Shown: piece by piece, positions 10,107 through 63,992 of the stretch
How the letters are laid out: every line of letters begins with the position of its first letter
Numbering within the stretch: position 1 is the stretch's first letter
Made by a program: the position numbers and the translations under genes
Notes under the pieces: model-generated
Seen by the model: only the letters and a program-made list of their open reading frames with translations
Databases searched by the model: none
Told to the model about the DNA's origin: nothing
Source: Omnitrophica WOR_2 bacterium GWF2_43_52
GTDB taxonomy: Bacteria > Omnitrophota > Gorgyraeia > Gygaellales > UBA12090
DNA length: 64,000 bases
Direction of reading: 5' to 3'
NCBI GenBank assembly: GCA_001805445.1
Contig: MHGF01000003.1
Location: 54,736-118,735 of the forward strand

Positions 10107-12062
10107 ATGTGCGGTATTTCAGGACTCTACTCCTTAAACGGGCGTTCGATAAGATTCGATGTTTTGCGTAAGATGAGCCAATTGTTACTACATCGCGGCC
10201 CTGACGGAGAAGGATACTTTTTGTCGGATACCCGTCTTAAGAAATTTGACGTTCATTATAATTCCGCGGATAGTTTCAATGTCAATGGGCTAAAGCCTGA
10301 TCTCGGATTGGCTCATAGGCGCCTCAGCATTATCGATTTAAGCGTTATCGCCCGCCAACCTATGTCTAATGATGATGGAAGCCTGTGGATTGTATTCAAC
10401 GGTGAGATTTATAATTATATTGAATTGAGGCGCGAATTGTCTACGTTGGGCTGTAATTTTAAAAGTGCTTCTGACACTGAAATAATTTTGCGTTCATATG
10501 AATTATTTGGCATGGGTTGCGTTAAGCGGTTTAACGGTATGTGGGCCTTTGCTATATGGGATGCGCGTAAAAACATACTTTTTTGCTCTAGAGATAGGTT
10601 TGGCGTAAAACCATTTTATTATTTTTATAATGATGGCCTATTCGCATTTGCTTCTGAAATAAAATCCCTCCTGCTGATTCAGCGGGCATATCCTAACGAG
10701 CGAGGAATTTATAATTACCTAGTTAAATCTTTCGGTTTTCTGGATGTCACAGAAGATACTCTTTTTGCGGATATTTATCAATTGCAACCTGCCCATAATC
10801 TGGTTATCGGCGCAGATGGGATAAAAATAGAAAAGTACTGGGATATCTATAGTGCTATTGATAAACCTTTACTTAGCCAGGGGCAGGCCATAGATGCATT
10901 CGGCTCCCTTTTTATCGATGCCATAAAAATAAGGCTGCGTAGTGATGTTAAAGTGGCAGGAGCCTTAAGCGGCGGGATTGATTCTTCGTCCATAACCTGC
11001 GTGATTAAAAAACGCCTCAAAGTAAATAACTATGAAACATATTCCGCGTGTTTTGATAACCCGCACTATGATGAACGTGAATATATCGCTGAGGTAACGC
11101 GAGATACCGGATATAAATCAAATTATGTTTTCCCTGACGAAGCATCCTTCTTTGATATTTTAAAGCGTCAAATATGGCTTCAGGATGAACCATTTAACGC
11201 GATGTGGGTGCATAGCCAGTGGTTTGTTTACCAGAAAGCAGCCGCTAATGGGGTAAAAGTTTTTATTAATGGTCATGGCAGCGATGAATCCTTGGGGGGA
11301 TATTATCCACACTTTGATGCCTTATGGGCTGATTTATTGCGGCGAGGCAGAATATTACTCTTGCTACATGAAATTTCTTTATTCTCTAAGCATAATCCCA
11401 GCCGATCCGTCAATTTGACGAACATCTTGTATTACATAGCGAATTATTATACCCCTGGCTTTATTAAAAGTTTCTTCTCAAAAACGCCAAATTTCCTTAA
11501 TTCTGATTTCGCGCAGAGAAATAGCAAAAAAAAATATCTTTATGAAAATCATTTTAATGATTTCTTAAACCGCTATCTTTATGAGTCATTGTTTATTTCT
11601 CCGATCAGAGGTATGTTGCATTTTGATGACCGTAACAGTATGGCGTTTTCTATAGAATCACGCACGCCTTTTCTTGACTATCGCCTTATAGAACTGGCAT
11701 TTAGCCTGCCTGGGACGTATAAGATTAAAAATGGTTATAATAAATATCTTCTAAGAGAAACAATGAAGGGGATCATCCCGGAGCGAATACAGGCGCGTTT
11801 TACTAAAAAAGGGTTTTCTTCTGGCGCGCCACAATGGTTACGGCAGAACAAAAAGTATTTGTATGATTTATTTAAACCGCAAACATGCCTTGCTGGCAAG
11901 TATCTAAAAAGTCCGGAAGTTATTAAAGAAATTGACCGCTATTGTGACGGAGAAACAAATATACATGAGCAATTAGGGTCTTGGGTAACATTGGAATTAT
12001 GGCTAAGAAAGTTTATTGACGGTAACGGCGGAATAAAAACTGAGGATATATTCCTCAATTGA
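10107..12062 (+). CDS. Asparagine synthetase (glutamine-hydrolysing) family amidotransferase, paralog 1; probable sugar amidotransferase (PseA/WbpS-like role)
   Basis: The N-terminal 'MCGISGL' holds the Ntn Cys2 nucleophile. 'LAHRRLSIIDL' and 'IVFNGEIYNY' follow. The synthetase-domain PP-loop is 'AGALSGGIDSS'. The size is 651 aa. Confidence 0.85.
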   Translation: MCGISGLYSLNGRSIRFDVLRKMSQLLLHRGPDGEGYFLSDTRLKKFDVHYNSADSFNVNGLKPDLGLAHRRLSIIDLSVIARQPMSNDDGSLWIVFNGEIYNYIELRRELSTLGCNFKSASDTEIILRSYELFGMGCVKRFNGMWAFAIWDARKNILFCSRDRFGVKPFYYFYNDGLFAFASEIKSLLLIQRAYPNERGIYNYLVKSFGFLDVTEDTLFADIYQLQPAHNLVIGADGIKIEKYWDIYSAIDKPLLSQGQAIDAFGSLFIDAIKIRLRSDVKVAGALSGGIDSSSITCVIKKRLKVNNYETYSACFDNPHYDEREYIAEVTRDTGYKSNYVFPDEASFFDILKRQIWLQDEPFNAMWVHSQWFVYQKAAANGVKVFINGHGSDESLGGYYPHFDALWADLLRRGRILLLLHEISLFSKHNPSRSVNLTNILYYIANYYTPGFIKSFFSKTPNFLNSDFAQRNSKKKYLYENHFNDFLNRYLYESLFISPIRGMLHFDDRNSMAFSIESRTPFLDYRLIELAFSLPGTYKIKNGYNKYLLRETMKGIIPERIQARFTKKGFSSGAPQWLRQNKKYLYDLFKPQTCLAGKYLKSPEVIKEIDRYCDGETNIHEQLGSWVTLELWLRKFIDGNGGIKTEDIFLN

Positions 12063-12077
12063 CAAAGGAGATGATAC

Positions 12078-13067
12078 ATGAAGTATCTGGTAGTTGGCTC
12101 TGGATCGATCGGAAAAAGGCGCATTGGCATTTTAAATGATTTGGGCATAACATCTATTGACATATGCGATAAATCTGAAACACGGATGGATGATGTTTGT
12201 CAGAAATACAGGGTCGAAGGCAGATATACGGATTATGCTGTGGCTTTGGCAAAAAAACCCGATGTTGTCATTATCTGCACGCCGCCGGTATTTCATATCT
12301 CTATTGCTAAGGCCGCTGTAGAAGCAGGGGCAGGCTTAATGATAGAAAAACCGCTGGCTCATAACTTAGATGGCGTAGATAGCCTGATTAAACTTATTCA
12401 GAAAAAGAAAGCGATTGCTGGCGTTGCTTATACTCTGCGTTTTCATAAAGGCGTTAACCTATTGCGGAATATAGTTGAGCAGAAAATTATAGGAAAGGTT
12501 TATTCTGTGCGCGCGGAGTGCGGCCAATACCTCCCAGATTGGCATCCGTGGGAAGATTATCGAAATTGGTATATGTCAAAAAAAAACGAAGGAGGAGGAG
12601 CGATTTTAGATATTAGCCATGAAATTGATTATGTAAGGTGGCTTCTTGGAGATGCTAAGGAAGTAGGGTGCTTTTACGGAACTATTAGCGATTTACAGAT
12701 GGATGCAGATGATGTGGCTGAAATACTATTGAGGTTTAAAAGCGGGGCCATTAGTTCTATACATCTTGACCTTTTGCAGAGAGATTACAGAAGAAATTGC
12801 GAAATTATTGGTGAAAAAGGGACTGTTTTATGGGACTATACGACAAAACAAATAAAGGTTTTTACAAAGGAAAAAGGTTGCTGGGAGACCATAGAATATA
12901 AAGAGGAACGCTCAGATATGTTCGTCGAAGAAACCAAACATTTTATTAAGTGTTTTGAAAAGAAAGCGCAGATTATGGTTTCTGTTGAAGACGCCGCTAA
13001 AACATTAGCTATTGCAGTTTCGGCGAAAGAGTCGAGCGATTCGAAAAAAATTGTGATACTTCCCTGA
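12078..13067 (+). CDS. Gfo/Idh/MocA-family NAD(P)-dependent oxidoreductase
   Basis: The N-terminal Rossmann 'MKYLVVGSGSIGKRR' is present. 'IEKPLA' matches the conserved EKP motif. The size is 329 aa. A strong SD 'AAAGGAG' precedes the start. Confidence 0.75.
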   Translation: MKYLVVGSGSIGKRRIGILNDLGITSIDICDKSETRMDDVCQKYRVEGRYTDYAVALAKKPDVVIICTPPVFHISIAKAAVEAGAGLMIEKPLAHNLDGVDSLIKLIQKKKAIAGVAYTLRFHKGVNLLRNIVEQKIIGKVYSVRAECGQYLPDWHPWEDYRNWYMSKKNEGGGAILDISHEIDYVRWLLGDAKEVGCFYGTISDLQMDADDVAEILLRFKSGAISSIHLDLLQRDYRRNCEIIGEKGTVLWDYTTKQIKVFTKEKGCWETIEYKEERSDMFVEETKHFIKCFEKKAQIMVSVEDAAKTLAIAVSAKESSDSKKIVILP

Positions 13068-13096
13068 CTTCTTCTATTGATGAGGTATCAGAGACG

Positions 13097-13798
13097 TTGG
13101 AAAAACAGATCTTAGCGTTTGTGCCCGCCCGGGGGGGGTCAAAAAGGCTTCCCGGGAAAAATATCAAACTTTTAGGTGGCATTCCGTTATTAGCCTATTC
13201 CTTAATCGCGGCGCTGAATTCGCGCATCATTACTAAAATTGTGCTTTCGAGCGATGATGATACAATGCTTGCTATTGGTGGTCACTATGGCCGGATTGAA
13301 GGTATCCGCCGTCCCGATAGCCTATCAGATGATAAAGCGACGACGCTTTCTGCCATAGCGCATTGCCTAGAGTATTTAGAAGTCCATCAGGCATATCGGC
13401 CGGATATCGTAGTCTTATTGCAACCAACCTGCCCTTTCAGAGAAAATGGCTATATTGACGCTGCGATTAATTGTTTTTTAGAGTCAGATGCTCATTCTTT
13501 GATTGGTGTATGCGAAGAAAAATATAAACTCGGTGAAATACGCGGTAAGTATTTTTATCCTCAGTATAAAGAAGGCACGCGTAAGCAAGATATGCCGGCT
13601 GTATACCGGGAAAATGGGTCAATTTACATCAGTAGGAGCCATATAATAAAAGAAGGCACGTTATTCGGGAAAAAGATACTCCCCTACCTTGGCAATAAAT
13701 TTAATGCGGTAAATATTGATACACAGCTTGATTTTGATAGTGCGGAAATGATTTTAGAAAAATACGCTGACCAATTTAAAGGAGGCGCGATACAATGA
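13097..13798 (+). CDS. Acylneuraminate cytidylyltransferase family (CMP-nonulosonic-acid synthetase; NeuA/PseF/LegF-like)
   Basis: 'AFVPARGGSKRLPGKNIKLLGGIPLL' matches the NeuA/PseF 'PARGGSKG.P.KN' motif. The KdsB motif 'PARYASTR' is absent. The size is 233 aa. A G8 homopolymer lies inside the catalytic motif at 13131-13138. Confidence 0.8.
   Translation: MEKQILAFVPARGGSKRLPGKNIKLLGGIPLLAYSLIAALNSRIITKIVLSSDDDTMLAIGGHYGRIEGIRRPDSLSDDKATTLSAIAHCLEYLEVHQAYRPDIVVLLQPTCPFRENGYIDAAINCFLESDAHSLIGVCEEKYKLGEIRGKYFYPQYKEGTRKQDMPAVYRENGSIYISRSHIIKEGTLFGKKILPYLGNKFNAVNIDTQLDFDSAEMILEKYADQFKGGAIQ
13131..13138 (+). repeat. Poly-G homopolymeric tract (G8) within the catalytic 'PARGGSK' motif codons of the CMP-NulO synthetase gene
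   Basis: I read 'cccgcccGGGGGGGGtcaaaa' directly. Tracts of G7 or longer are rare in this roughly 40% GC sequence. Confidence 0.9.
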
Positions 13799-14820
13799 AA
13801 AGGATAAAAATTGATAATCACTGGATAGGTGAAAGATGCCCTGTGTTTATTATCGCTGAGGCAGGAATTAACCATAATGGTGACTATCGAAAAGCCCTTG
13901 AACTTGTTGACGCGGCGGCTGAATGCGGAGCAGACGCAGTCAAGTTTCAGACTCACCTTCCAGAACACGAAATGCTGCGTGAGGGATTTAGCGCAGGCTA
14001 TATTGGGCAATCGTTTTTTGATTTATTGAAAAAGTGCCAGTTAAGCGAAATTGACCATCTGCGCCTCATGCAGAGAGCAAAGAAAAAAAAGATAATGTTT
14101 CTTTCTACGCCTTTTAGCCGAGAGGCGGTAGATTTTTTGGATAGGATAGGCATTGCAGCATTTAAAACCGGATCCGGTGAATTGACAAATATACCGCTTC
14201 TAGAACATATCGCTAAAAAGAATAAACCTATGATAATTTCTACAGGAATGAGCAGTATGACGGAAATAGGGAATACCGTAAAAGCGATAACAAAGTTGAA
14301 TAAAGAAATTATCCTGATGCAATGTACATCTACTTATCCGGCTGAATATAAGAATATCAATTTAGCAGTAATAAAAATACTAAAAAAGCGTTTTGGTTTT
14401 CCTGTGGGGCTCTCAGATCATTCTTATGGTATGTATACCGCGCTAGGCGCAGTGGCTTTGGGCGCGGCAATGATAGAGAAGCATTTCACTCTCAATAGGT
14501 CATGGCCTGGCCCTGACCAAAAGGCATCAATTACACCTCGGGAACTGCAGGAATTAGTACGCGGCACAAAGGCTTTGCAGCAGGCATTGGGGAACAAAAA
14601 GAATATCCTCAGGGAGGAGATCCCCGTTCGCAAAATGGCGAATGAAAGCGTTGTTTCTTTGCGCGACATAAATGCCGGCGAAAGGCTGACGCTTAGCAAT
14701 GTTTGGGTCAAACGCCCCGGGACAGGAATCCCTGCCGCCAGCTTAAAAAATGTTATCGGCAGAAGCGCACGGAAACAAATTCGCATTAATTCGCTGATAA
14801 AATGGAGTGATTTACAATGA
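13795..14820 (+). CDS. N-acetylneuraminate synthase family (NeuB/PseI/LegI), with C-terminal SAF domain
   Basis: 'VFIIAEAGINHNGDYRKALELVDAAAECGADAVKFQT' is the classic NeuB N-terminus. 'LSDHS' is present. The C-terminal SAF-like segment is '...RDINAGERLTLSNVWVKRPGTGIPA'. Confidence 0.85.
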   Translation: MKRIKIDNHWIGERCPVFIIAEAGINHNGDYRKALELVDAAAECGADAVKFQTHLPEHEMLREGFSAGYIGQSFFDLLKKCQLSEIDHLRLMQRAKKKKIMFLSTPFSREAVDFLDRIGIAAFKTGSGELTNIPLLEHIAKKNKPMIISTGMSSMTEIGNTVKAITKLNKEIILMQCTSTYPAEYKNINLAVIKILKKRFGFPVGLSDHSYGMYTALGAVALGAAMIEKHFTLNRSWPGPDQKASITPRELQELVRGTKALQQALGNKKNILREEIPVRKMANESVVSLRDINAGERLTLSNVWVKRPGTGIPAASLKNVIGRSARKQIRINSLIKWSDLQ

Positions 14821-15971
14821 AAAAAAAGAGGATTTGTATTGTAACTGCGAATCGCGCAGAATATAGCCGTGTAAAAACAGTACTTGAGGCAATTAGCAAA
14901 AATCAAAAATTAGAATATATACTCATAGTTATCGGTTCTCATTTGTTGCGCAAATACGGAAATACCTATCGAGAAATAGAGCGCGATGGTTTTACTATTC
15001 ACGAACGCATTTATAATACAATAGAAGGGGAAAATCCTGTTACCATGGCTAAATCAGCGGGTTTTGCCATAATAGAATTAGCAACTCTTTTAGACAGCTA
15101 TAAGCCTGATTTTGTAGTAGTTCTTACCGATAGATATGAAACCTTAAGCGCTGCTGTTACGGCTGCCTTTTTAAATATTCCTGTAGCTCATATTCAGGGT
15201 GGAGAAGTTACAGGGACAATAGATGAAAGCATAAGGCACGCGGTAACTAAGTTCGCGCATGTTCATTTCGCCGCTAGCGAAGCAAGTAGGCAGAGAATTA
15301 TCAAGTTGGGAGAAACTCCTGAATTCGTGTTTAATGTAGGCTGCCCTGCTACAGATTTGCTGCTGCGTGCAAAAATACTACGGCAAAAAGAGGTCCTTAC
15401 TAATGAGGAGATCAAAAATCCGCATATAAAAGCAAATGACCCGTTCATTGTAGTATTACAGCATCCGGTTACTACAGAATTCGGCGAGGGGTATTCCCAA
15501 ATAGAAGAAACATTGTATGCGATAAAAGATTTCGGAATGCAGACGATAATGCTTTGGCCTAATGTTGATGCCGGAAGCGAGCATATTGTAACTGCCATAA
15601 GAAGATTTTTAGAAGAATATCGATTGAGGAATATTTTTATGTACCGTCATATTACTAATAGCCTTTTTATACAGTTATTGTATCACTGTAAATGTTTAAT
15701 TGGGAACTCCAGCTCTGGTATCAGGGAAAGCTGTTATTTCGGCACTCCGGTAGTTAATATCGGCACCCGTCAACATGGCCGTGAACGCGGCAAGAATGTA
15801 GTAGATGTTGGGTATGGGCGTCACTTGATACTTAAGGCAATTAAAAAACAAGTTAGCCATGGGCGTTACCCCCGAGAGAATGTTTTTGGCAAAGGGGATG
15901 CCGGTAGGAAAATTGCCGATATTTTATCAACAATAAACGGGATTAAAGTACAGAAGATTATAACGTATTAG
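14817..15971 (+). CDS. UDP-N-acetylglucosamine 2-epimerase (hydrolysing), NeuC/LegG-like
   Basis: 'RICIVTANRAEYSRVKTVLEAI...LEYILIVIGSHL' is typical of the NeuC N-terminus. The GT-B-like epimerase fold motifs are 'DRYETLSAAVTAAFLNIPVAHIQGGE' and 'IGNSSSGIRE'. Confidence 0.8.
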   Translation: MKKKRICIVTANRAEYSRVKTVLEAISKNQKLEYILIVIGSHLLRKYGNTYREIERDGFTIHERIYNTIEGENPVTMAKSAGFAIIELATLLDSYKPDFVVVLTDRYETLSAAVTAAFLNIPVAHIQGGEVTGTIDESIRHAVTKFAHVHFAASEASRQRIIKLGETPEFVFNVGCPATDLLLRAKILRQKEVLTNEEIKNPHIKANDPFIVVLQHPVTTEFGEGYSQIEETLYAIKDFGMQTIMLWPNVDAGSEHIVTAIRRFLEEYRLRNIFMYRHITNSLFIQLLYHCKCLIGNSSSGIRESCYFGTPVVNIGTRQHGRERGKNVVDVGYGRHLILKAIKKQVSHGRYPRENVFGKGDAGRKIADILSTINGIKVQKIITY

Positions 15972-15975
15972 AAAA

Positions 15976-17325
15976 ATGATTAATCAGTTAAGACTATTCA
16001 TAGTTCAGATGCGCTACACGATAAAGCCTTTTTTTTACTTACCCATTACATTTTTAAGGCGCGTTGTTTTTGGCAGAGACGCGCATCTCAAACAGTACTT
16101 TTGGGACAAATGGGGTTTTTTAGACAAACATATGAATGATATTTTAAGCGGAGCGGAGAGTATCCTCTGGATAGATGTTGCTTCCGGTGGAGAAATTTTA
16201 CAATTAGTGAGCTTCCTTCGCTTGTTAAAGAAGCATCATAAAGGTTTAAAGATAGTCCTTTCAACGGCAAGCGATGATGCATATGCGTATGCGGAAAAAT
16301 TAGACACAATAGATTTTGTTTTTAATACTCCGTGGGATTTTGCCTTTGTTGCCAGGCGCGCCTTAAGGCAGGTCAACCCAAACCTTTTTATCAGTGTTGA
16401 ATTTACCCGGATCCCAAAACACTTTTTAACTGCTCAGAGCCTTAGAGTTAAAACCTTGCTTCTGAGCGGATTGATGAGCTGCCGTATGCAGGAACATCCG
16501 ACCTTAGAGCGTACGTACGCGCTTAATGCGTATCATTTTTTTGATTTTATAGCTGCCAAAGAGAATCGTGATTATGAAGGATTCGCGGCGTTAGGTATAG
16601 AGCGTAGCAAGATAGTGCGCTTAGGCAACATGAAGTTTGATACAGGTTTTTTAGATATCAAAGAAAGCCAGATATCCACCTTAAGAGATGTTTTTGCCCT
16701 TAACCCTGGGCAAAAAATATTTCTTGCAGCAAGTGTATTCTCGCCGGAAGAGGAAATAGCTATTGATGCCTTTAGGAAAGCTAAAGCTGTAATCCCGAAT
16801 CTGCGCCTGATTATTGTCCCGCGTTTTACTAAATATATACCAGGAATTGTCGATTATTTAAAACACCATGATTTTTCATATATATTGCGTACAGAGCTTC
16901 CAAAGCGAGATAACGCGGAGGGGCTTAACGATACGGTCGTCATCGTTGATACATTCGGTGAATTAGTGAAATTGTATCATTTAGCTGATTATATTTTTTT
17001 AAGCGGCAGTATCTATCCAGTAAATAAAATAGGTGGCGGCAAGAATATCGTAGAGCCTTTAGCAAGTAAAAAACCCATATTCTTTGGCCCGCACATGCGT
17101 TATTGGCAGGAAATCACGCAGCCCCTGATGTCAATTTACCAAGCATTGGAGGTTCGTAACGCGGATGATTTAGCCACTGGTATAATAGACTTAAGCAGGA
17201 GGCCGGATATACAAAATGCGTTAAGGGATAAGGCCATTGAGTTATTGCATCAATATACTGATGTGATAAGCGATAATGTGCGTTTTGTAGAGACGATACT
17301 CTACAATGGGAAGGTAGCTGCATGA
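15976..17325 (+). CDS. GT30-family glycosyltransferase (3-deoxy-D-manno-octulosonic-acid transferase / WaaA-like)
   Basis: 'ILWIDVASGGEILQLVSFLRLLKK' parallels the WaaA 'WIHxxSVGE...P' acceptor-domain motif. 'LGNMKFD' parallels WaaA 'GSLKFD'. The GT-B C-domain is 'IVDTFGELVKLY'. The size is 449 aa. Confidence 0.6.
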   Translation: MINQLRLFIVQMRYTIKPFFYLPITFLRRVVFGRDAHLKQYFWDKWGFLDKHMNDILSGAESILWIDVASGGEILQLVSFLRLLKKHHKGLKIVLSTASDDAYAYAEKLDTIDFVFNTPWDFAFVARRALRQVNPNLFISVEFTRIPKHFLTAQSLRVKTLLLSGLMSCRMQEHPTLERTYALNAYHFFDFIAAKENRDYEGFAALGIERSKIVRLGNMKFDTGFLDIKESQISTLRDVFALNPGQKIFLAASVFSPEEEIAIDAFRKAKAVIPNLRLIIVPRFTKYIPGIVDYLKHHDFSYILRTELPKRDNAEGLNDTVVIVDTFGELVKLYHLADYIFLSGSIYPVNKIGGGKNIVEPLASKKPIFFGPHMRYWQEITQPLMSIYQALEVRNADDLATGIIDLSRRPDIQNALRDKAIELLHQYTDVISDNVRFVETILYNGKVAA

Positions 17326-18323: not shown

Positions 18324-18332
18324 CAAATACCT

Positions 18333-19424: not shown

Positions 19425-19610
19425 AAAATGATGAGCAATGCTCGAAAAACCCAAAGTGAACGCTTCCTCATTTTTCGGGTGCAGAAGCATATAGATTTGG
19501 TCATTACAGCTATTACAGTTTTAACGGACTTTTAATCATAGCAAAAAACCATTTTTTTGCACCAGCATGGTCTTTTGAGGTAGTGTGCTCTAAGCGTATG
19601 ATTTCTACAC

Positions 19611-35546: not shown

Positions 35547-35558
35547 GGTTTCTAAAGT

Positions 35559-36299: not shown

Positions 36300-36317
36300 T
36301 GAGAGAGGAGTAAATAT

Positions 36318-44805: not shown

Positions 44806-44830
44806 CGTAAGGAATGAAAGGATCTTCATA

Positions 44831-48881: not shown

Positions 48882-48888
48882 CATTATA

Positions 48889-54876: not shown

Positions 54877-54882
54877 AATCAT

Positions 54883-56694: not shown

Positions 56695-56695
56695 T

Positions 56696-58171
56696 ATGAA
56701 GGTATTGCTTATTCAACCGCCGTTTACTATATATCATTCGGAAAGCAAAAAATGCCATCCACCTTTAGGATTAGCTTATCTTGCCGGAGTTTTACGATTT
56801 AATTATGATGTGCGGATATTAGATGCGCTAGCGGAAGGCTACGATTTTCAGGAAAAAATAAGCCCAGGAATCATTCGCTATGGTATGGCCTTTACCGAAA
56901 TTAGGAAACGTATTGCGGATTTTTCTCCCGATATTGTTGGAGTATCATGTTTGTTTTCTGCGCAAGTCGAAAACTCCCTTTTAGCCTGCAGGGCGGCCAA
57001 GGAAGTTTCTAAAAGCATCCTTACTGTGTCTGGAGGAGCCCATCCTTCAACGGTTCCGCAGGAAATGCTTGCTGATTCTAATTTGGACTTTATAGTTTTA
57101 CAAGAAGGAGAAACCAGCTTCCCTGCATTACTACAGGCTTTAGAGGCAAAAAGTGACTTCTCCAGGATAGATGGTATTGCTTTTAAAAAAAACGGGAAAA
57201 TTATCGTAAATCCAAAAGCCGCGATGGAGGAAAATTTGGATACCATACCGTTCCCTTATTGGCAGGCATTGCCTATAAAAAAATACTTTCACATCAATAA
57301 TCCTCATGGGGTCGCGCTTTCAAATGTTCCGTTTCTACCTGTTATAACTTCTCGAGGCTGTCCTTTTTCTTGTATTTTTTGTTCTGTGAACAACCTCTGG
57401 GGCAGAGGATACCGGAAACGTTCAGCGGAGAATGTCTTAGATGAATTACAATACCTCATTGATTCTTTCGGTGTTAGAGAAATACTTTTTGAAGACGATA
57501 ACCTTACCTTAGATAAGCAACGGGCAATAAATATTTTCGCAGGAATGGTGGAGCGGAAATTTAATCTTCGCTGGAGCGTCCCTAACGGGATTGCGGTTCA
57601 GACATTGGACGAACCTATGCTTGAGCTTATGAAAAAAAGCGGTTGTCACAGTATTAGTATCGCAGTTGAATCAGGAGACGAATACATCCTGCACAAGGTT
57701 ATCGGTAAGCCTCTTGAGTTATCTCAAGTTAAACCAATTGTGGAAAAAGCCAGAAAAATAGGCCTGGAAACTACTATCTTCTTTGTCGTAGGATTTCCTT
57801 CGGAAACCAGGGAACAGATAAAACATACCTTCACTTTCTCCGAAAAATTGGGAGCGGATAACGTCAATTTTTTTTATGCTACTCCTTTACCAGGCACGGC
57901 CTTATTCGAAGTATGCCGAAAGAAAGGTTACTTGCAAGGCAAGATTGACTATTCACGGCTTAAATCTGATTACCCTGTTTTTTCTACTGATACTTTTACA
58001 GTTACGGAACTTGCGTCTGCGGTGCGAAAACAAAAATCAAAACTATACTTTCTTTATGCATTAGCTCATCCTGTGAAATCCGTAAGAAAAATATGGCGCA
58101 CGATAATAATAGACCCGAGAAATTTTATCCGTTTCTGCCTTAGATTTTTCAAGGGAATTTCAAAAACATGA
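56696..58171 (+). CDS. B12-binding-domain radical SAM enzyme (class B), paralog 6
   Basis: The B12 domain is 'VLLIQPPFTIYHSESKKCHPPLGLAYLAGVL'. 'QEGETSF' is present. The radical SAM motif is 'CPFSCIFC'. The size is 491 aa. Confidence 0.8.
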   Translation: MKVLLIQPPFTIYHSESKKCHPPLGLAYLAGVLRFNYDVRILDALAEGYDFQEKISPGIIRYGMAFTEIRKRIADFSPDIVGVSCLFSAQVENSLLACRAAKEVSKSILTVSGGAHPSTVPQEMLADSNLDFIVLQEGETSFPALLQALEAKSDFSRIDGIAFKKNGKIIVNPKAAMEENLDTIPFPYWQALPIKKYFHINNPHGVALSNVPFLPVITSRGCPFSCIFCSVNNLWGRGYRKRSAENVLDELQYLIDSFGVREILFEDDNLTLDKQRAINIFAGMVERKFNLRWSVPNGIAVQTLDEPMLELMKKSGCHSISIAVESGDEYILHKVIGKPLELSQVKPIVEKARKIGLETTIFFVVGFPSETREQIKHTFTFSEKLGADNVNFFYATPLPGTALFEVCRKKGYLQGKIDYSRLKSDYPVFSTDTFTVTELASAVRKQKSKLYFLYALAHPVKSVRKIWRTIIIDPRNFIRFCLRFFKGISKT

Positions 58172-60036
58172 TCAAACAGCAAACTATCATCTGTATTTCT
58201 AGCATTGACTGGGAGTTTATTTGGCAAGGCCATCAAGAAATCATGGCCGTCTTTGCCAAAAACGGTAACCGGATTCTTTTCATAGAAAACACCGGTGTGC
58301 GGGCGCCATCCTTTAAGGATATTGGCCGGTTGAATAAAAGAATAAAGATTTGGTTCTCAAGCATTCGGGGTTTCAGGGAAGTGCAGAAAAATATTGTAGT
58401 CTATTCTCCGATTATTCTGCCGTTTCCCCATTCTTTTTTTGCGCGGTTAATCAATAAACGGCTGCTCTTACGCCCTCTCGAGAAATGGATGAAGGCGGCA
58501 AGATTTGACCAGCCAATCATTTGGACCTTCTTGCCTACGGGAATTGCTCTTGATATAATCAACACAATAAACCACAAATTGCTCGTGTATTACTGTATTG
58601 CCGACTTCGCTAAACTTACTGATAAGCCATATAAACTAGCCTTAACTGAAAAGGAAGTTATCCGCCAAAGTGATGTAATTTTCACTCAAGGCAGCGTATT
58701 GAAAAATAAATGCCTGCAGTATAACAATAACGTGCATATTTTTCCTTTCGGAGTCAATGTGGAAGCGTTTTTATGCGCAAACCCGGACAAAGAGAAAAAA
58801 CCTGACGATATAAGAACTATTCCTCACCCAATAATCGGCTACGTTGGCGGAATCCATCGGCACATCGATTTTTCGCTTCTTAAGAATATCGCGCAAAACC
58901 GTCCTGAATGGTCTCTTGTGCTTATCGGTCCAGCCCAATCCGATCTCTCAGAGATAAAACATATCAATAATATATTCTTCCTAGGAAAAAAAGAATTCTC
59001 GATACTACCATCTTATATTGCTGAGTTTGATGTCGGAATAATCCCGTATAAGATCAATGCCTATACCCAAACAGTTTATCCAACAAAAATGAATGAATAC
59101 TTGGCTATGGGTAAACCGGTGGTTTCAACTAATCTTCCTGAAGTTATCGCCTTTAATAAAGAAAATCACGAAATCTTGCGCGTAGCTTCCACAAACGAAG
59201 ATTTTATCAAAGCTATCGATACCTATCTCGGTTACGACACTCCCTCCAGCATAGTCGATAGAATAGCCTGTGCCAAAAAGAACTGCTGGACAGAACGCAT
59301 CGAATTGATGAGCCGTCACATAGAGGCATTCTTAGACTTAAAAACTCCAGGGCAAAACGAATGGCAAATTTCACTGCTTCGGATCTATAAGCAATGGCGC
59401 AGGAAAATGGTTATGGTTGTTTCATCCGTTTTAATTATCTACGCAGGGATATTCTATACCCCGTTTATCTGGTGGATTTCTGAACCACTGATAATTTCTC
59501 AAAATCCACAAAAAGCTGATTGTATTCTGGTTTTAGCCGGAGGAGTAGGCGAATCTGGACAACCTGAGCAAGGATATGAAGAAAGAGTGTCTTACGCTGT
59601 GAAGCTTTACCGGCAAGGTTATTCAGAAAATTTATTGTTTTCTTCCGGATACACCTATGCTTTCAAAGAACCCTTCATAATGAAAGCCTTGGCCATGTCT
59701 GAAGGAGTTCCGGAGAATCGAATTTATCTTGAAACTAAAGCTAAAAATGTATATGAAAACATTATTTTTTCGGGAAATATACTCAGAATGAATAAGTGGA
59801 GAACCATTCTACTGGTAAGTTCTCCCTACAATATGCTTCGGGCCTCGCTGGTAGCAAAAAAACAAATACCTGCAATTACAATAGTGTATACCCCAATATC
59901 CGATTCCCTTTTTTACAGGCATGGAGAAAATGCTGCTGGCAACCCTGTATTGAAACAAATTACTATGCGTCAAATAAAAGGGCTCTTGCATGAATATTTA
60001 GGCATAGCCTATTACTTTCTAAAAAAATATATTTAG
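58168..60036 (+). CDS. Fusion: GT-B glycosyltransferase (paralog of ORF 52686) + C-terminal DUF218 (YdcF/SanA/ElyC-like) domain
   Basis: The N-terminal ~400 aa form a GT domain: 'GYVGGIHRHIDFSLL' and 'NEYLAMGKPVVSTNLPEV'. A TM segment 'MVMVVSSVLIIYAGIFY' follows. The C-terminal 'ADCILVLAGGVGESGQPEQGYEERVSYAVKLYRQGYSENLLFSSGYT...NVYENIIFSGNIL' is typical of DUF218. Confidence 0.6.
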   Translation: MIKQQTIICISSIDWEFIWQGHQEIMAVFAKNGNRILFIENTGVRAPSFKDIGRLNKRIKIWFSSIRGFREVQKNIVVYSPIILPFPHSFFARLINKRLLLRPLEKWMKAARFDQPIIWTFLPTGIALDIINTINHKLLVYYCIADFAKLTDKPYKLALTEKEVIRQSDVIFTQGSVLKNKCLQYNNNVHIFPFGVNVEAFLCANPDKEKKPDDIRTIPHPIIGYVGGIHRHIDFSLLKNIAQNRPEWSLVLIGPAQSDLSEIKHINNIFFLGKKEFSILPSYIAEFDVGIIPYKINAYTQTVYPTKMNEYLAMGKPVVSTNLPEVIAFNKENHEILRVASTNEDFIKAIDTYLGYDTPSSIVDRIACAKKNCWTERIELMSRHIEAFLDLKTPGQNEWQISLLRIYKQWRRKMVMVVSSVLIIYAGIFYTPFIWWISEPLIISQNPQKADCILVLAGGVGESGQPEQGYEERVSYAVKLYRQGYSENLLFSSGYTYAFKEPFIMKALAMSEGVPENRIYLETKAKNVYENIIFSGNILRMNKWRTILLVSSPYNMLRASLVAKKQIPAITIVYTPISDSLFYRHGENAAGNPVLKQITMRQIKGLLHEYLGIAYYFLKKYI

Positions 60037-60038
60037 CA

Positions 60039-61355
60039 ATGAAAAAGCTCTTATTGTTATACGTGATTTCACTGCCTCTGGCTGGTGTAATGACGTTTTT
60101 TAACATACGTGATAAGATCCAGCTTAACGACCTTATATTTCTTATTTTAACCATAGTGTTTGCTCTTTCTGTTTTATTCGGCAAAAGGAAGCTTCATACT
60201 GTTTCATTAGGATATTTTCTTATCCTAATAGTAGTAACTTTTATGGCTTCTAATTTAAAAGCTGGATTCACACCTGACATTGCCGTTGAGTATTCTGGAA
60301 TTATATATTTGATAGTAGTCTATTGCTTGGTATTTCAATTCATTGATTCCGAAATTATTTTTTGGCGCATCATTAATGTTTGGGCATGGGTAAGCAGTAT
60401 AATCGCTGTGGTTTCGCTTTTATCATATATTGGATACTATGCTGGCTTAAAAACTGGATTGGTCAGTGATTTTGGGCTTTTAGGAAAAGCCAACCCTGCA
60501 TTTGTAATTCGCTTAACCGGAACATTTAAACATCCGGGAATGTTTGCAGCCTATTTGCATGTCTCGATAGTTTTAATCTCTATTTTATTTTTCAGAACAA
60601 AAACATATAGCGAAAAGGCCCTCTCTGCAGCAGCCTTATGTTTATGTTTTGTGGCCGCAGGGTTGACTAAAACCAGGGTTATTGCCGGTATTATGTTCAC
60701 CATTTTTCTCATAACGTTAAGATTACAAGGTTCAAGAGGAAACTCTTTAATCAAATTTTTTTCAGGGGCTACCGCTTTCTCAACCATGCTTTTTATGCTT
60801 ATAATTACCGTTTGGTGGATCTTTCCTATTACTATTAGTCGCGATCCTCTAACCAAAAAGCGTTCTATAAAAGTTAATCTGGTCCATCAATCTTATTTCA
60901 TTCAGCATAAAGCGGCATTGCGTATGACCATGGACTATCCAGTATTAGGGGTAGGAATGGGGCTCTATAACATCCGATCTGCAGAGTATGTATCGTGGCA
61001 AGAGGCAAAAGATCCCTACCGTATCATGTTTCCTCAGGCTACCGAAAAAACGGACAATTTTTATCGCAAAGGTTTCGATCCCCATTCTACGTACTTAGGC
61101 TGGGCCGCGGAAACCGGATTGGCAGGATTATTTTCTATCATGGTTTTCTTTACTGCGGTAATTTGTGTGCTGAATAAAGGCAGAGCCTTTAGCTCTGCCG
61201 CGGGGAATGTTTTTCATATTTTTCTTGCCGGAATATTTGGGTTTTTATTTAATGCCCTCTATCTGGATATCCTGACTATGCGCCATTTTTGGCTGATGCT
61301 TGTTTTCGGGGTATCTTACTATAATCTCATTGTGAATAAGGAGAAAGCGGTTTAA
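60039..61355 (+). CDS. O-antigen ligase/polymerase family membrane protein (Wzy_C domain)
   Basis: There are about 10-12 TM segments. 'DPHSTYLGWAAETGLAGL' matches the Wzy_C H-x-x-x-L...E-x-G-x-x-G signature. A periplasmic loop is 'YRIMFPQATEKTDNFYRKGF'. Confidence 0.6.
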   Translation: MKKLLLLYVISLPLAGVMTFFNIRDKIQLNDLIFLILTIVFALSVLFGKRKLHTVSLGYFLILIVVTFMASNLKAGFTPDIAVEYSGIIYLIVVYCLVFQFIDSEIIFWRIINVWAWVSSIIAVVSLLSYIGYYAGLKTGLVSDFGLLGKANPAFVIRLTGTFKHPGMFAAYLHVSIVLISILFFRTKTYSEKALSAAALCLCFVAAGLTKTRVIAGIMFTIFLITLRLQGSRGNSLIKFFSGATAFSTMLFMLIITVWWIFPITISRDPLTKKRSIKVNLVHQSYFIQHKAALRMTMDYPVLGVGMGLYNIRSAEYVSWQEAKDPYRIMFPQATEKTDNFYRKGFDPHSTYLGWAAETGLAGLFSIMVFFTAVICVLNKGRAFSSAAGNVFHIFLAGIFGFLFNALYLDILTMRHFWLMLVFGVSYYNLIVNKEKAV

Positions 61356-63232
61356 TGTGCGGGATCGCTGGAATATTTAATCGAAACGGATCAAAGGTTG
61401 CCTCTCAAGGAATCAGGAAGATGCTTTCTGTGCTTTCTCACCGCGGGCCTGATGATGAAGGGACGTACTTCAGTAACGGTATCGGCTTAGGCCATAGACG
61501 CTTAAGCATCATTGACCTTGACAGTGGCCATCAACCTTTAGGGAATGAAACCGGCTCAGTACAAATTGTTTTTAACGGTGAAATATACAATTACCAAGAG
61601 TTGACTGCTGCATTAAAGGACAGAGGCCATGTATTTTCTACTAAAAGCGATACAGAAACAATTGTTCATTTATATGAAGAATATGGGATAGAGTCTTTCT
61701 CAAGGTTAAAAGGAATTTTTGCCTTTGCCCTGTGGGATGAAAATGCGGAAAGGCTTATATTAGTCAGGGACCAGGTAGGGGTTAAACCGCTATTTTATTT
61801 TATAGGTAAAGAAAGAGTGATTTTTGCTTCCGAGGTTAAATCTATACTGCAAAACACGCAAATCAGCAGGGAAATCGACGGGCGATCTTTTGACGATTAT
61901 TTTGCCCTTGGGTATATTACCGGAGGAAAAACCATAATTAAAGGTATCCATTCACTTCTGCCTGCGAATTTTTTGATAATAGATAAATCAAGGGAAATTT
62001 TAAAAGAGTATTGGGATATCCCATTCACAACAGATAGACCTTTTAAGGAAAAATATTACCAGGAGCAGTTACTAGGCTTGTTATCCCGAATTATACCCAA
62101 ACAGATGATCAGTGATGTCGCCGTAGGGGCTTTTTTAAGCGGAGGAATAGATTCCAGCGCCGTAGTAAGCTTTATGGGCAATAATCGTAAAGAAATAATT
62201 AAAACCTTCAGCATCGGTTTTAAGGAAAAGACTTATGATGAGTCGGTATATGCCAGGATGGTAAGCACTACATTCCGCACCCAGCACAAACAAAAGACGA
62301 TCAACGCTAACATCAGGAATATTATCGAAAAAATTATTTGGTTCAATGACGAGCCTTTTGCTGATACCTCAACTATCCCCATGTATTGCCTTTCTCAGTT
62401 AGCTTCTGAAGAGGTTAAGGTAGTATTATCTGGTGACGGAGGAGACGAAAATTTTTTAGGCTACCATACCTCTATCGCTGACAAACTACACCAAAATTAT
62501 TCTCGGTTTCCAGTCTGGTTGCGAAAAGGATTAAAGACAATCGGCGAAGGAGTATCTTCAGGCTTTGTGAAGGTAGGTGTCGGTGAAAAAATTAAGCGCT
62601 TCTTAAGAGGCGGGGTTTACCCTCAACCTTACGCTCATTATCTATGGCGCATTTATTTTGACGATCAAGAACGAAAAAAACTTTTTTCTCCTGATTTCCT
62701 TAGAAATAATCAAGGATATTCCCCCTTTGACCAGTTTATTGACCTGTTTGACAAACACAAGGAGGCCACTCTTACCCAGCGCTTAAGCTATATTGATTAT
62801 AAGACCTGGCTCGTCGATGACATCCTGAGAAAAGTGGACCGTGCGAGCATGGCACATTCCCTTGAGGCCAGAGTGCCACTTCTTGATCAGGAATTAATTG
62901 CTTTTTCAGCTCGTCTGCCTGATAATCTAAAAATGAAGGGAATACAAGGGAAGTATATTTTGAAACGGGCTCTTGCTTCTAGGCTTCCGCCTAAAATCAT
63001 CAACAGGCCAAAGCAAGGATTCAATGCTCCAATAGCTTATTGGATCAATAATGAATTGCAGGATTATGTCGATGATTACCTTTCTCGGGAAAGTATTACA
63101 AAAAGCGGTTATTTTAATTTCAATTACGTAAATACCTTACTACAAGACCACCGTAAGGCTAAAAAGGACAACGGTATTAAAATCTGGAGTATACTAGTAT
63201 TTATGCTTTGGAGAGATGCGTATCTTACATAA
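61355..63232 (+). CDS. Asparagine synthetase family amidotransferase, paralog 4
   Basis: The start is 'MCGIAGI'. 'LGHRRLSIIDLD' and 'IVFNGEIYNY' follow. The PP-loop is 'GAFLSGGIDSS'. The start overlaps the upstream stop (TAATG). Confidence 0.85.
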   Translation: MCGIAGIFNRNGSKVASQGIRKMLSVLSHRGPDDEGTYFSNGIGLGHRRLSIIDLDSGHQPLGNETGSVQIVFNGEIYNYQELTAALKDRGHVFSTKSDTETIVHLYEEYGIESFSRLKGIFAFALWDENAERLILVRDQVGVKPLFYFIGKERVIFASEVKSILQNTQISREIDGRSFDDYFALGYITGGKTIIKGIHSLLPANFLIIDKSREILKEYWDIPFTTDRPFKEKYYQEQLLGLLSRIIPKQMISDVAVGAFLSGGIDSSAVVSFMGNNRKEIIKTFSIGFKEKTYDESVYARMVSTTFRTQHKQKTINANIRNIIEKIIWFNDEPFADTSTIPMYCLSQLASEEVKVVLSGDGGDENFLGYHTSIADKLHQNYSRFPVWLRKGLKTIGEGVSSGFVKVGVGEKIKRFLRGGVYPQPYAHYLWRIYFDDQERKKLFSPDFLRNNQGYSPFDQFIDLFDKHKEATLTQRLSYIDYKTWLVDDILRKVDRASMAHSLEARVPLLDQELIAFSARLPDNLKMKGIQGKYILKRALASRLPPKIINRPKQGFNAPIAYWINNELQDYVDDYLSRESITKSGYFNFNYVNTLLQDHRKAKKDNGIKIWSILVFMLWRDAYLT

Positions 63233-63992
63233 CATGGATGTCGAACGGCTACAACAACAACAATATGACAAGCTTATAGACAAATATGACGCTACCTACG
63301 GCGACGACTATAGTCAACAGTATAGATGTAAATACATTTACAAGCCTATGTTTGATTCTATCAGCCTGAAAGGAATGAATGTTTTAGAAGCTATGTCCGG
63401 CAGTGGACAAGTAACGGATTATTTACTTTCGCATGGAGCGATAGTTACCGGCCTGGATATCTCTAAAAAATCGATACAACTTTTCAAGGAGCGTTGGCCG
63501 GGAAGCACTGCGGTATGTTGCTCTCTTTTGAACTCAGGATTGCCCAGTGAGTCATTCGATTGCGTAGTCGTGATGGGCGGATTGCACCATGTACAGCCAC
63601 ATAGTATGCAAGCTATCGATGAGGCATACCGTTTACTTAAGCCCGGAGGGTATTTTTGTTTTGCCGAACCTTTTGCCGGATCATTCCTGGATACTATCCG
63701 TAAAATATGGTATCGTCACGATCCGCTTTTTGCTAAAAATGAGCAAGCTATAGATATTGAATTCCTGAAAAACGAATATGCCGACCGCTTTGAAATTAAA
63801 AAAGAAAAATTTATCGGCAACGTGGCATATATTTTTGTGATGAACGCGATGATCCTACGAATACCTGCCTTCTTGAGACGCTGGTATGCTCCCTTTTTAT
63901 TACGCATGGAGTATTTTCTAGAACGCATACTAGGTAAACGCTTTTCTTGTTTTTGTCTCAATCAATGGAGAAAGAAATACGTCATAAAATGA
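63216..63992 (+). CDS. Class I SAM-dependent methyltransferase (probable)
   Basis: Motif I-like 'VLEAMSGSGQVTDYL' is present. 'VTGLDIS' is post-I. 'FDCVVVMGGLHHV' is motif II/III-like. 'LKPGGYFCFAEP' is motif IV-like. Confidence 0.6.
   Translation: MRILHNMDVERLQQQQYDKLIDKYDATYGDDYSQQYRCKYIYKPMFDSISLKGMNVLEAMSGSGQVTDYLLSHGAIVTGLDISKKSIQLFKERWPGSTAVCCSLLNSGLPSESFDCVVVMGGLHHVQPHSMQAIDEAYRLLKPGGYFCFAEPFAGSFLDTIRKIWYRHDPLFAKNEQAIDIEFLKNEYADRFEIKKEKFIGNVAYIFVMNAMILRIPAFLRRWYAPFLLRMEYFLERILGKRFSCFCLNQWRKKYVIK

Follow-up and report, generated by a model that had tools for sequence, protein, structure and literature searches.

A probable envelope-glycan supercluster rich in radical SAM enzymes, AsnB-type amidotransferases and methyltransferases in an Omnitrophota bacterium

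Tailoring Enzymes of the Locus

The stretch of DNA analyzed here (the window) comprises 64,000 nucleotides of contig MHGF01000003.1 from Omnitrophica WOR_2 bacterium GWF2_43_52 (positions 54,736 to 118,735) and carries a long array of glycan-assembly genes interspersed with radical S-adenosylmethionine (SAM) enzymes, asparagine synthetase-type (AsnB) amidotransferases and class I methyltransferases. About 51 open reading frames (ORFs) of at least 120 residues were taken as genes; all are on the plus strand and most abut or overlap, with five gaps of more than 100 bp. Seven shorter minus-strand ORFs nested in these genes were left out of the count. Domains were assigned by a Pfam scan of every ORF in the window at the gathering score, and function-specific families by the curated cut-offs of NCBIfam. 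Genes are designated by the position of their first nucleotide (Table 1). A first-pass annotation, made from the sequence alone, had described positions 10107–63992 as a region of glycan biosynthesis exceptionally loaded with the three enzyme types, and the domain searches bear this out. Six B12-binding radical SAM proteins (rSAMs) and four AsnBs are present at the starts that it gave; the starts of 40837 and 24675 agree with the beginning of the profile alignment and with public gene calls. Pfam also confirms the interleaved genes for two Wzx flippases, a Wzy_C protein, glycosyltransferases (GTs) of the GT2, GT4, GT30 and GT-C types and NeuABC-like enzymes, together with a carbamoyltransferase at 44831. 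All six methyltransferases for which coordinates had been listed were recovered, but the total of seven was one too many, there being no seventh within the window. The array itself is real but extends beyond the limits assigned to it, because co-directional glycan genes run past both ends of the window and the whole is at least 78 kb long. Nine rSAMs in 41 genes correspond to a P value of ~1e-7 under an assumed rSAM background of 2%, and the enrichment is far above chance under any plausible genomic background. The window proteins have identical copies on a groundwater-metagenome contig of 145.7 kb, in which the window corresponds to positions ~3821–67820, and in several metagenome-assembled genomes (MAGs).

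All six B12-binding rSAMs (B12-rSAMs) contain PF02310 (58–77 bits; cut-off 32.1) and PF04055 (69–97 bits; cut-off 29.5), and the CX3CX2C motif occurs as a single copy in each of the nine rSAMs of the window (six B12-type and three twitch-type). The lack of a B12 domain or iron-sulfur motif in the B12-rSAMs, which by the first-pass annotation would have made the locus far less novel, was found in none of the six. In 37018, the motif cysteines Cys215, Cys219 and Cys222 are invariant across 15 homologues of the fusion protein. The proteins were scored against curated class-B families including HpnJ, BchE, PhpK, Sden_1168, HpnR, Mmp10-type, TsrM, KedN5, BzaD, AprD4 and TIGR04295. The Sden_1168 methyltransferase family is the best curated match for 56696 and 28561 only and, apart from the match of 56696 to this family, scores are at most 45% of the curated cut-offs. 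The solved chains nearest by sequence are AprD4, MgmA/QCMT (9ccb) and TokK, with AprD4 at the top for 56696 and 37018; CysS is among the matches both by sequence and by fold.

The first-pass annotation had grouped three further proteins as SPASM/twitch rSAMs. PF04055 and PF13186 are present in all three, but a full SPASM domain is not: their C-terminal cysteines number only four or five, spaced as C-x17-C(C)-x41/42-C-x2-C, which suffice for one auxiliary cluster, and they are therefore of the twitch type. Among the curated SPASM families (anSME, PqqE, BlsE, tungsten-cofactor maturase and others), none was reached, the best score being 100–150 against 380 for TIGR04317. The nearest solved chains to 53869 are BtrN and BlsE (cytosylglucuronate decarboxylase), with E values of 1e-9 to 1e-11, and both of these enzymes act on sugar-like substrates.

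Each of the four AsnBs has the N-terminal sequence MCG, which places the nucleophile cysteine directly after the methionine, followed by GATase_7 and Asn_synthase domains with an SGGxDS PP-loop. All pass the generic model TIGR01536, and TIGR03108 (eps_aminotran_1) is the top model for three of them; 10107 scores 346.9 on the latter. Orthologues of 40837 that are 57–60% identical occur in four related loci (L011, L013, L025 and L027; related loci are designated by L and a number). Close to 40837 are genes for an oxidoreductase (GFO) and an aminotransferase (DegT), and this pair resembles WbpB/WbpE. The amidotransferases WbpS, WbqG and P. gingivalis PGN_1234 produce uronamides from uronic acids, and their genes lie beside wbpE and wzx (PMC7468200). 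Amidino and amide groups had both been predicted. As three of the AsnBs score highest on TIGR03108, a family shown to make uronamides, the formation of amides is the better supported prediction and that of amidines is less supported.

Within the window, identity is 25–34% among the B12-rSAMs, 26–28% among the twitch rSAMs and 31–42% among the AsnBs, as compared with the 55–68% reached by the orthologues that 37018 and 56696 have in other members of Omnitrophota. Because of this difference, the rSAM and AsnB paralogues appear to be long-standing and functionally distinct genes rather than recent duplicates.

Coupling to Glycosyltransferases and Distribution of Related Loci

The B12-rSAM::GT4 architecture of 37018 recurs in dozens of homologue clusters at 44–62% identity, and in the alignment of these proteins the iron-sulfur cysteines and many residues of both halves are invariant. 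The AlphaFold (AF2) model of 37018 has a mean predicted confidence (pLDDT) of 82 and comprises two complete folds. The N-terminal half has a class-B rSAM fold that superposes on MgmA, TsrM, AprD4, OxsB, TokK and CysS, with a fold-similarity (TM) score of 0.72–0.74 for AprD4, and the C-terminal half has a retaining GT-B fold similar to those of MshA, BshA, PglA and methylmannose-polysaccharide mannosyltransferase. The two halves are fused in L011–L013 and L030 and are encoded by adjacent, often overlapping genes in L016, L018, L020, L021 and L023–L027. Other fusions involve the remaining enzyme types. Many orthologues of 56696 (52–57% identity, ~768 residues) carry a C-terminal class I methyltransferase; L041 encodes such a B12-rSAM::methyltransferase fusion followed by a GT4::DUF218 protein, as after 56696 in the window, and also a methyltransferase::GT2 fusion. 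A B12-rSAM::GT2 fusion is found in a Thermodesulfobacteriota MAG (L042) among genes for methyltransferases, Wzx, Wzy_C and GT4::DUF218. In L043, the gene order is Wzx, B12-rSAM, methyltransferase, GT2, methyltransferase, B12-rSAM, GT2, two methyltransferases, B12-rSAM, Wzx and carbamoyltransferase.

The same associations are seen as gene contacts. Methyltransferase and B12-rSAM genes overlap by 4 bp at three places (26400/27101, 48889/49650 and 63216/63989). Four of the seven B12-rSAMs, counting the one that begins at the end of the window, are fused to a glycosyltransferase or directly precede one: 28561 (GT-C), 37018 (fusion), 56696 (GT4::DUF218) and the seventh (GT2). Elsewhere, the gene next to a B12-rSAM is most often one for a glycosyltransferase (23 of 59 cases in the other loci). 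We read the fusions and neighbors as Rosetta-stone evidence, from gene organization, that the glycosyltransferases, methyltransferases and B12-rSAMs share intermediates.

One genome per GTDB species was scanned with a profile of the fusion. This gave 27 loci, none of them from the species of the window itself, and their ORFs were classified against the window proteins. Most are labeled Omnitrophota, and the rest Planctomycetota/Planctomycetia, Nitrospirae, Margulisiibacteriota, WOR-1, Saganbacteria and Dissulfurispiraceae; homologues of 37018 and 56696 with a named source are almost all labeled Omnitrophota or Omnitrophica. Two to four B12-rSAMs per ~22 kb, with methyltransferases, AsnBs and twitch rSAMs, are present in L012, L020, L021, L023, L025, L032 and L034, so that the density in the window, ~2.2 per 20 kb, is ordinary for loci of the Omnitrophota type. 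A core order recurs: a 31250-like membrane protein, the B12-rSAM and GT4 unit, a 39669-like GT4, a 40837-like AsnB, a 43046-like protein, GFO and DegT. The rSAM/GT4 unit, the partner GT4 and the AsnB have orthologues that are 43–68% identical; identity is only 24–41% for the 31250-like and 43046-like proteins, GFO and DegT. The accessory B12-rSAMs outside this core are very diverse, 30 sequences falling into 27 clusters at ≥40% identity. The rich rSAM, AsnB and methyltransferase make-up, as judged by homology, is common in Omnitrophota and present in some other uncultured lineages. The suggestion that the locus is unique is not upheld, as similar loci are usual in Omnitrophota and also occur in the Thermodesulfobacteriota MAG L042, L040 and L043. 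In L040 (7546–20963), the order is twitch rSAM, B12-rSAM, twitch rSAM, B12-rSAM, a gene without assignment, B12-rSAM, two PMT genes and two GT2 genes.

Several observations were made on these relatives. The L040 cluster is found downstream of metK and ahcY, which serve SAM synthesis and recycling, at a distance of ~2.5 kb that holds rhomboid and M48 peptidase genes. L043 is JGI contig Ga0066639_10000067 and carries protein P0202, labeled Woesearchaeota by one source; this label is doubtful because the contig encodes bacterial-type heptose genes, a SIS-domain GmhA-like protein and a PfkB/cytidylyltransferase HldE-like protein. An exhaustive search gave 10,471 cluster representatives at E ≤ 1e-30. 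Among them, the P0381, P0384, P0396 and P0459 set consists of megaproteins of 2096–2331 residues with four to five rSAM domains (three to four B12-type and one SPASM-type), and one protein of 2633 residues combines DUF362, a ferredoxin domain and TPR repeats with two rSAM and three GT4 domains. These long proteins may be artefacts of gene calling or genetic code. A 2026 preprint on giant proteins of Omnitrophota places GT group 1 and radical SAM domains within one co-occurring domain module.

Among the other genes of the window, the nonulosonic acid (NulO) module contains the one enzyme of its kind that passes a curated cut-off, the NeuC-like protein (412.6 against 235.9 on TIGR03568); the NeuB-like protein scores 381.6 against 399.65 and the NeuA-like protein 133.9 against 205.7 on PseF. 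The membrane protein 31250 has weak pairwise similarity (E 8e-5) to the PMT_2 protein 29931, and in several relatives a gene like it lies directly upstream of the B12-rSAM/GT4 unit. In the window, the two are separated by the CotH/VTC/DUF4956 trio, homologues of which were found in none of the 27 related loci at E ≤ 1e-8. Orthologues of 39669 occupy the same position in most of the fused and split relatives (43–58% identical; 35% in L018), and L011, L012, L016, L020, L024 and L030 conserve a 43046-like protein next to an AsnB or GT4 of the core module. In the amino-sugar branch, the best match of the GFO protein is UDP-GlcNAc 3-dehydrogenase (155 against 450), and the DegT protein is PseC/ArnB-like, below cut-offs. 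The GT4::DUF218 protein is a conserved downstream partner of 56696-type rSAMs, the pairing being found also in L041, L025 and L027.

Table 1. Genes and gene groups of the window (profile scores in bits, given against the cut-off of the model)
Feature	Position	Strand	Evidence
Wzy_C/O-antigen-ligase-like gene, 3' part (full gene 412 residues, in L010)	61..645	+	PF04932
LPS-core-type block: GT9, ManC, GT9, DegT, GT2, GmhB-like HAD, GT28-like, 334-residue β-rich protein	632..8661	+	Pfam
AsnB 1, most divergent of four	10107..12062	+	GATase_7 + Asn_synthase; SGGIDS; passes generic TIGR01536 only
GFO/IDH/MocA sugar oxidoreductase	12078..13067	+	Pfam; best NCBIfam UDP-GlcNAc 3-dehydrogenase 133 vs 450
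NulO module: NeuA-like cytidylyltransferase, NeuB-like synthase, NeuC-like hydrolyzing 2-epimerase (starts 13097, 13795, 14817)	13097..15971	+	Pfam, NCBIfam
GT30-type (Kdo-transferase-like)	15976..17325	+	PF04413; WaaA model 170 vs 438
Twitch rSAM 1	17322..18323	+	PF04055 + PF13186; CX3CX2C at residue 61; five C-terminal Cys
Twitch rSAM 2	18333..19424	+	PF04055 + PF13186; CX3CX2C
Wzx-type flippase 1	19611..21083	+	PF01943, PF13440
B12-rSAM 1	21143..22702	+	PF02310 + PF04055; CPFSCIFC motif; curated ApyD (172 vs 750), then BchE, HpnJ
Class I methyltransferase 1	22791..23513	+	Pfam
GT4	23510..24673	+	Pfam
Class I methyltransferase 2, Cys-rich N-terminal segment	24675..25598	+	Pfam; start agrees with public gene call
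GT2	25595..26296	+	Pfam
Class I methyltransferase 3, 4-bp overlap with next B12-rSAM	26400..27104	+	Pfam
B12-rSAM 2	27101..28564	+	PF02310 + PF04055; best curated HpnJ 135 vs 578
B12-rSAM 3, overlaps following GT-C gene	28561..29949	+	Best curated Sden_1168 171 vs 575, then HpnJ
PMT_2 (GT-C) membrane glycosyltransferase	29931..31256	+	Pfam; seven transmembrane-like segments
Polytopic membrane protein without Pfam match, probably second GT-C-like enzyme	31250..32674	+	Eight transmembrane-like segments
CotH kinase-like (980 residues, C-terminal right-handed β-helix), VTC domain protein, DUF4956 membrane protein	32604..37004	+	Pfam
B12-rSAM 4 fused to GT4, 884 residues	37018..39672	+	Pfam; best curated HpnJ 187 vs 578
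GT4, conserved partner of fusion	39669..40769	+	Pfam
AsnB 2, WbpS-like	40837..42723	+	TIGR03108 651.7 vs 816.9
Signal-anchored 234-residue protein, weak transglutaminase-core resemblance	43046..43750	+	PF01841 E 0.017, sub-threshold; one N-terminal transmembrane segment
Amino-sugar branch: GFO oxidoreductase, NodU/CmcH-type carbamoyltransferase (44831), DegT aminotransferase	43747..47591	+	Pfam
Class I methyltransferases 4 and 5 (47901, 48889); second overlaps next B12-rSAM by 4 bp	47901..49653	+	Pfam
B12-rSAM 5	49650..51071	+	Best curated BchE 208 vs 481
Wzx-type flippase 2	51100..52605	+	Pfam
GT4	52686..53876	+	Pfam
Twitch rSAM 3	53869..54876	+	PF04055 + PF13186; four C-terminal Cys, spacing 18/42/3
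AsnB 3, WbpS-like	54883..56694	+	TIGR03108 557.4 vs 816.9
B12-rSAM 6	56696..58171	+	Best curated Sden_1168 methyltransferase family 309.5 vs 575
GT4::DUF218 fusion	58168..60036	+	Pfam; TuaH-like region 126 vs 550
Wzy_C-family membrane protein: polymerase, ligase or O-oligosaccharyltransferase	60039..61355	+	PF04932 33.9 vs 31.7; eight transmembrane-like segments
AsnB 4, WbpS-like	61355..63232	+	TIGR03108 633.5 vs 816.9
Class I methyltransferase 6, 4-bp overlap with seventh B12-rSAM	63216..63992	+	Pfam
Seventh B12-binding rSAM gene, first 12 nucleotides (468 residues; rest beyond window)	63989..64000	+	L007 10774-12180, PF02310 + PF04055

The array is flanked on its upstream side by genes of a lipopolysaccharide (LPS) core type, and the Wzy_C gene whose 3' part lies at 61–645 is accompanied upstream of the window by one for a PMT_2 protein of 678 residues. 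GC content is 0.43 across the first 8 kb, which hold the LPS-core genes, and 0.37–0.41 in the tailoring-rich part; such a drop is the usual pattern of variable O-antigen-type regions. The LPS-core block closes with a soluble protein (7657–8661) that is rich in β-structure, belongs to no Pfam family and has about four internal repeats of the form LTF.G.W. The region that follows (8662–10002) includes the largest intergenic gap, of 414 bp, with an ORF of 91 residues that public annotations call as a gene, and then a gene for a trypsin-like/Nal1_C-like protease. A 29-nucleotide direct repeat at 9035 and 9288 (86% identical) was the one result of a repeat search of the gaps and, with two copies, probably reflects chance. 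Scans of the window with Rfam and for tRNAs gave zero matches, and hence no cobalamin or SAM riboswitch. Downstream of the seventh B12-rSAM (in L007) are genes for a GT2, an MBOAT and GDSL pair, an epimerase, a GT4, an initiating transferase with PF00953 and a further Wzy_C protein. The MBOAT and GDSL-like pair just past the window (L007 13062–20019) is in the style of AlgI/AlgJ O-acetylation, and the initiating transferase, of 605 residues, combines PF00953 (WecA/MraY-type) with CoA_binding_3 and PglD_N-like domains. Of the parts used in Wzx/Wzy assembly, two Wzx flippases and Wzy_C proteins are encoded inside the window and the PF00953 enzyme just outside it; a Wzz-type chain-length regulator was not found within the window.

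Interpretation and Alternative Explanations

The region is very probably a supercluster for envelope glycans of the LPS-core and O-antigen type. Its contents are of four kinds: (i) LPS-core genes; (ii) the NulO module, consisting of the NeuABC-like enzymes, the GT30-type protein and two twitch rSAMs; (iii) the conserved Omnitrophota module; and (iv) variable modules of the O-unit type that have Wzx and Wzy_C proteins of their own. The first-pass annotation had taken all of this as a single system. The LPS-core genes, the NulO module, the two Wzx genes and the three Wzy_C genes, counting the flanks, show instead that the supercluster serves several lipid-linked units, at least two. Its sugars are probably tailored by the rSAM, AsnB and methyltransferase enzymes, a role suggested by their placement and fusions.

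From the domains, motifs, gene order, fusions and taxonomic spread observed, we infer the following substrates, chemistry and order of steps. GT2 and GT4 enzymes would build sugars on undecaprenyl phosphate at the cytoplasmic face, and each new residue or nucleotide-sugar precursor would be edited before flipping by the enzymes that adjoin or are fused to its transferase. The action of the rSAMs is expected to precede flipping by Wzx because SAM and the reducing system are both cytoplasmic, and their substrates at this stage could be nucleotide sugars or oligosaccharides linked to undecaprenyl diphosphate. Class I methyltransferases would add O- or N-methyl groups. The B12-rSAMs would act on unactivated sugar carbons, C-methylation being most likely for 56696 and 28561 and methylation, deoxygenation or rearrangement being the candidate reactions of the others. 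The twitch rSAMs may catalyze BtrN- or BlsE-like oxidation, epimerization or decarboxylation; the WbpS-like AsnBs may convert uronic or ulosonic carboxylates to carboxamides with glutamine and ATP; and the NodU-type enzyme would attach carbamoyl groups. After flipping by Wzx, the GT-C and Wzy_C proteins would extend, polymerize or ligate the units in the periplasm.

Several results weigh against parts of this scheme. The curated NCBIfam cut-off was reached by none of the six B12-rSAMs, and that of TIGR03108 (816.9) by none of the four AsnBs, all of which score below every function-specific cut-off. AprD4, a cobalamin-free enzyme, is among the closest solved relatives, and a B12-type domain alone therefore does not prove that cobalamin is used. 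No UDP-sugar 6-dehydrogenase that could supply uronic acids was seen within the window. A promoter and terminator scan of 40–54 kb gave counts equal to those of shuffled sequence, so that an operon structure is not shown. Finally, Wzy_C and PMT families also serve protein glycosylation, so that LPS, a protein or a polymer in free form are all candidate acceptors.

The prediction of C-methyl groups stands in part. C-methylation is best supported for 56696 and 28561, by their Sden_1168 matches; it is not established for all six B12-rSAMs, because AprD4 is among the nearest solved chains and a 2026 review on radical SAM enzymes that depend on B12 places HpnJ and BchE, the type of match found for the others, under "other or unknown transformations." The same review describes AprD4 as acting without cobalamin binding. 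That most of the B12-rSAMs are C-methylases is a plausible reading that falls a little short of an even chance. A competing possibility, which we regard as doubtful though worth serious attention, is that they are mostly non-methylating and catalyze AprD4-like diol dehydration, HpnJ- or OxsB-like ring contraction or BchE-like cyclization, giving a glycan with deoxy or rearranged residues instead of C-methyl groups. It draws on the review, on the best curated matches (HpnJ for 27101 and 37018, BchE for 49650, and for 21143 ApyD, with BchE and HpnJ next) and on the position of AprD4, an enzyme of an aminoglycoside sugar, as top solved match of 56696 and 37018 with a similar fold. The HpnJ-, BchE- and ApyD-type scores, however, amount to 20–45% of the curated cut-offs and do not establish membership, and the methyltransferases MgmA/QCMT, TsrM, TokK and CysS match about equally by fold. 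Moreover, 56696 is clearly nearest to the Sden_1168 methyltransferase family and has orthologues fused to methyltransferases, and methylases are the majority of the characterized class-B enzymes (PMC12931638). Two specific pathways were suggested by individual matches. A hopanoid HpnIJK pathway for the GT2, methyltransferase and 27101 genes was rejected, with scores far under the cut-off and no deacetylase or hopanoid gene; for a phosphonate pathway, suggested by the Sden_1168 and PhpK matches, Pfam scans revealed no PEP-mutase-type gene within the window.

The nature of the acceptor raises a further question. The Wzy_C family includes the PglL/PilO O-oligosaccharyltransferases, 29931 matches PMT and PMT_2, and the fused glycosyltransferase domain of homologues has a precomputed PF26337 (Gtf3_C) assignment and a weak match to the glucosyltransferase of PDB 4w6q; the PMT-family GT-C, Gtf3-related and Wzy_C modules might on these grounds serve O-linked glycosylation of surface proteins rather than synthesis of an LPS O-antigen or free polysaccharide. 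We consider this unlikely: the neighboring heptosyltransferases, GmhB-like phosphatase and WaaL-like gene point to LPS, no acceptor protein candidate is evident, PMT_2 also spans ArnT-like lipid and glycan transferases, and the glycosyltransferase half of 37018 has its closest folds in MshA, BshA and PglA, transferases of the small-molecule or lipid-linked kind. Far less probable again is the proposal that the rSAM, AsnB and methyltransferase genes belong to an embedded pathway for a lipid or for a ribosomally synthesized and post-translationally modified peptide (RiPP) and lie among glycan genes by accident. The matches that could be cited for it, to ApyD, rSAM_ocin_1, a lasso-peptide cyclase model (for the AsnBs), a ladderane-type lipid rSAM and Tes, are all far under their cut-offs, and the AsnBs keep the glutaminase cysteine typical of amidotransferases. 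The rSAM genes are interspersed singly among those for glycosyltransferases, and in many lineages the rSAMs form fusions with GT4 or GT2. No precursor-peptide-like ORF or lipid-synthesis gene was found, and a RiPP pathway was rejected as a candidate, the larger gaps holding short unremarkable ORFs only and a peptidase/ABC exporter pair being absent.

Under the preferred reading of a sugar-tailoring supercluster, a broader proposal can be made, although it is speculative and, in our judgment, rather improbable as a whole: that triads of a glycosyltransferase, a class I methyltransferase and a B12-rSAM, occurring as neighbors or in all pairwise fusions and possibly in the megaproteins with four to five rSAM domains, represent an unrecognized means of envelope-glycan diversification, with radical C–C bond formation on lipid-linked sugars during assembly and with the accessory B12-rSAMs as a serotype-like, fast-diversifying toolkit. 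By analogy, the products of such triads could include C-methyl branches, O-ethyl or O-isopropyl ethers (through CysS-like extension) and carbocyclic residues (HpnJ-like).

No characterized near-identical locus was found in the literature, in line with the earlier expectation, and no description was found of an enrichment of B12-rSAMs, twitch rSAMs or AsnBs in envelope-glycan loci of Omnitrophota or other organisms; the searches matched only generic hypervariable regions termed "polysaccharide cassettes." Polysaccharides, glycans and sugars go unmentioned as substrates in the 2026 review of B12-dependent enzymes. What radical SAM enzymes do to polysaccharides of the cell surface is essentially uncharted, and this locus and its relatives provide sequence-defined candidates, including natural fusions that reveal which glycosyltransferase or methyltransferase is the partner. 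If the reading is correct, Omnitrophota, which include very small, host-dependent cells, and some other uncultured lineages with this gene pattern would display many carboxamides alongside C-alkyl, deoxy or rearranged residues. These glycans might in turn influence how the cells resist glycosidases and are recognized by phages or hosts, and possibly sedimentary biomarker chemistry, and the enzymes would widen the set of catalysts for C–H functionalization of sugars.

Comparison with Known Systems

The components belong to known superfamilies within a familiar Wzx/Wzy-type frame, and the locus is a widely distributed lead rather than a singular one. The AsnBs resemble WbpS, WbqG and PGN_1234 (TIGR03108) in their two-domain structure with an N-terminal cysteine and PP-loop and in lying near DegT (WbpE-like), GFO (WbpB-like) and wzx genes, but they score 557–652 bits, below the cut-off of 816.9, and there are four paralogues in the locus as compared with one in those systems; WbpA and WbpD were not identified within the window. 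The CotH, VTC polyphosphate-polymerase and DUF4956 genes are likewise adjacent and inside a polysaccharide locus in the accessory set of Gram-positive pel loci, from which the window differs in that its CotH protein has a C-terminal right-handed β-helix and the trio interrupts an Omnitrophota-specific module. The twitch protein 53869 shares with BtrN and BlsE, its nearest solved chains, C-terminal cysteines for a single auxiliary cluster. BtrN has one such cluster. The relationship is distant, given the E values above and a BlsE NCBIfam score far under the cut-off, and the surroundings are those of a polysaccharide locus, not of an antibiotic cluster.

Both HpnJ (hopanoid cyclitol-ether synthesis) and AprD4 (aminoglycoside 3'-deoxygenation, a diol dehydratase acting on paromamine) use radical chemistry to alter a hexosamine-type ring. 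Four of the six B12-rSAMs have HpnJ as their best or near-best curated match, but at 135–187 against 578 bits and without hpnI or hpnK hopanoid genes these are not members of its family. AprD4, for all that it is the top solved sequence match, has no members here either: model scores are 68–111 against 500 bits, and there is no AprD3-type partner. The recurrent pairing of methyltransferases with B12-rSAMs, in some cases as fusions, recalls by analogy only the logic of CysS, in which an O-methyltransferase is followed by an iterative B12-rSAM acting on the methoxy carbon. CysS, however, works on the aromatic methoxy group of a carrier-bound intermediate, and O-alkyl sugars are without support here.

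To our knowledge, the only characterized precedent for radical C-methylation of sugars is provided by GenK, GenD1/GntE, Fms7 and MoeK5 of aminoglycoside and moenomycin pathways. GenK-type methylases act on unactivated sugar carbons. The B12-rSAMs of the window share with them, by description and not by sequence comparison, a B12-binding domain and an rSAM core, the four being listed as class-B radical SAM methylases (PMC12931638). Those enzymes modify small secondary metabolites and occur as one or two per cluster, whereas seven paralogues, some of them fused to glycosyltransferases, are found here in a Wzx/Wzy-type locus.

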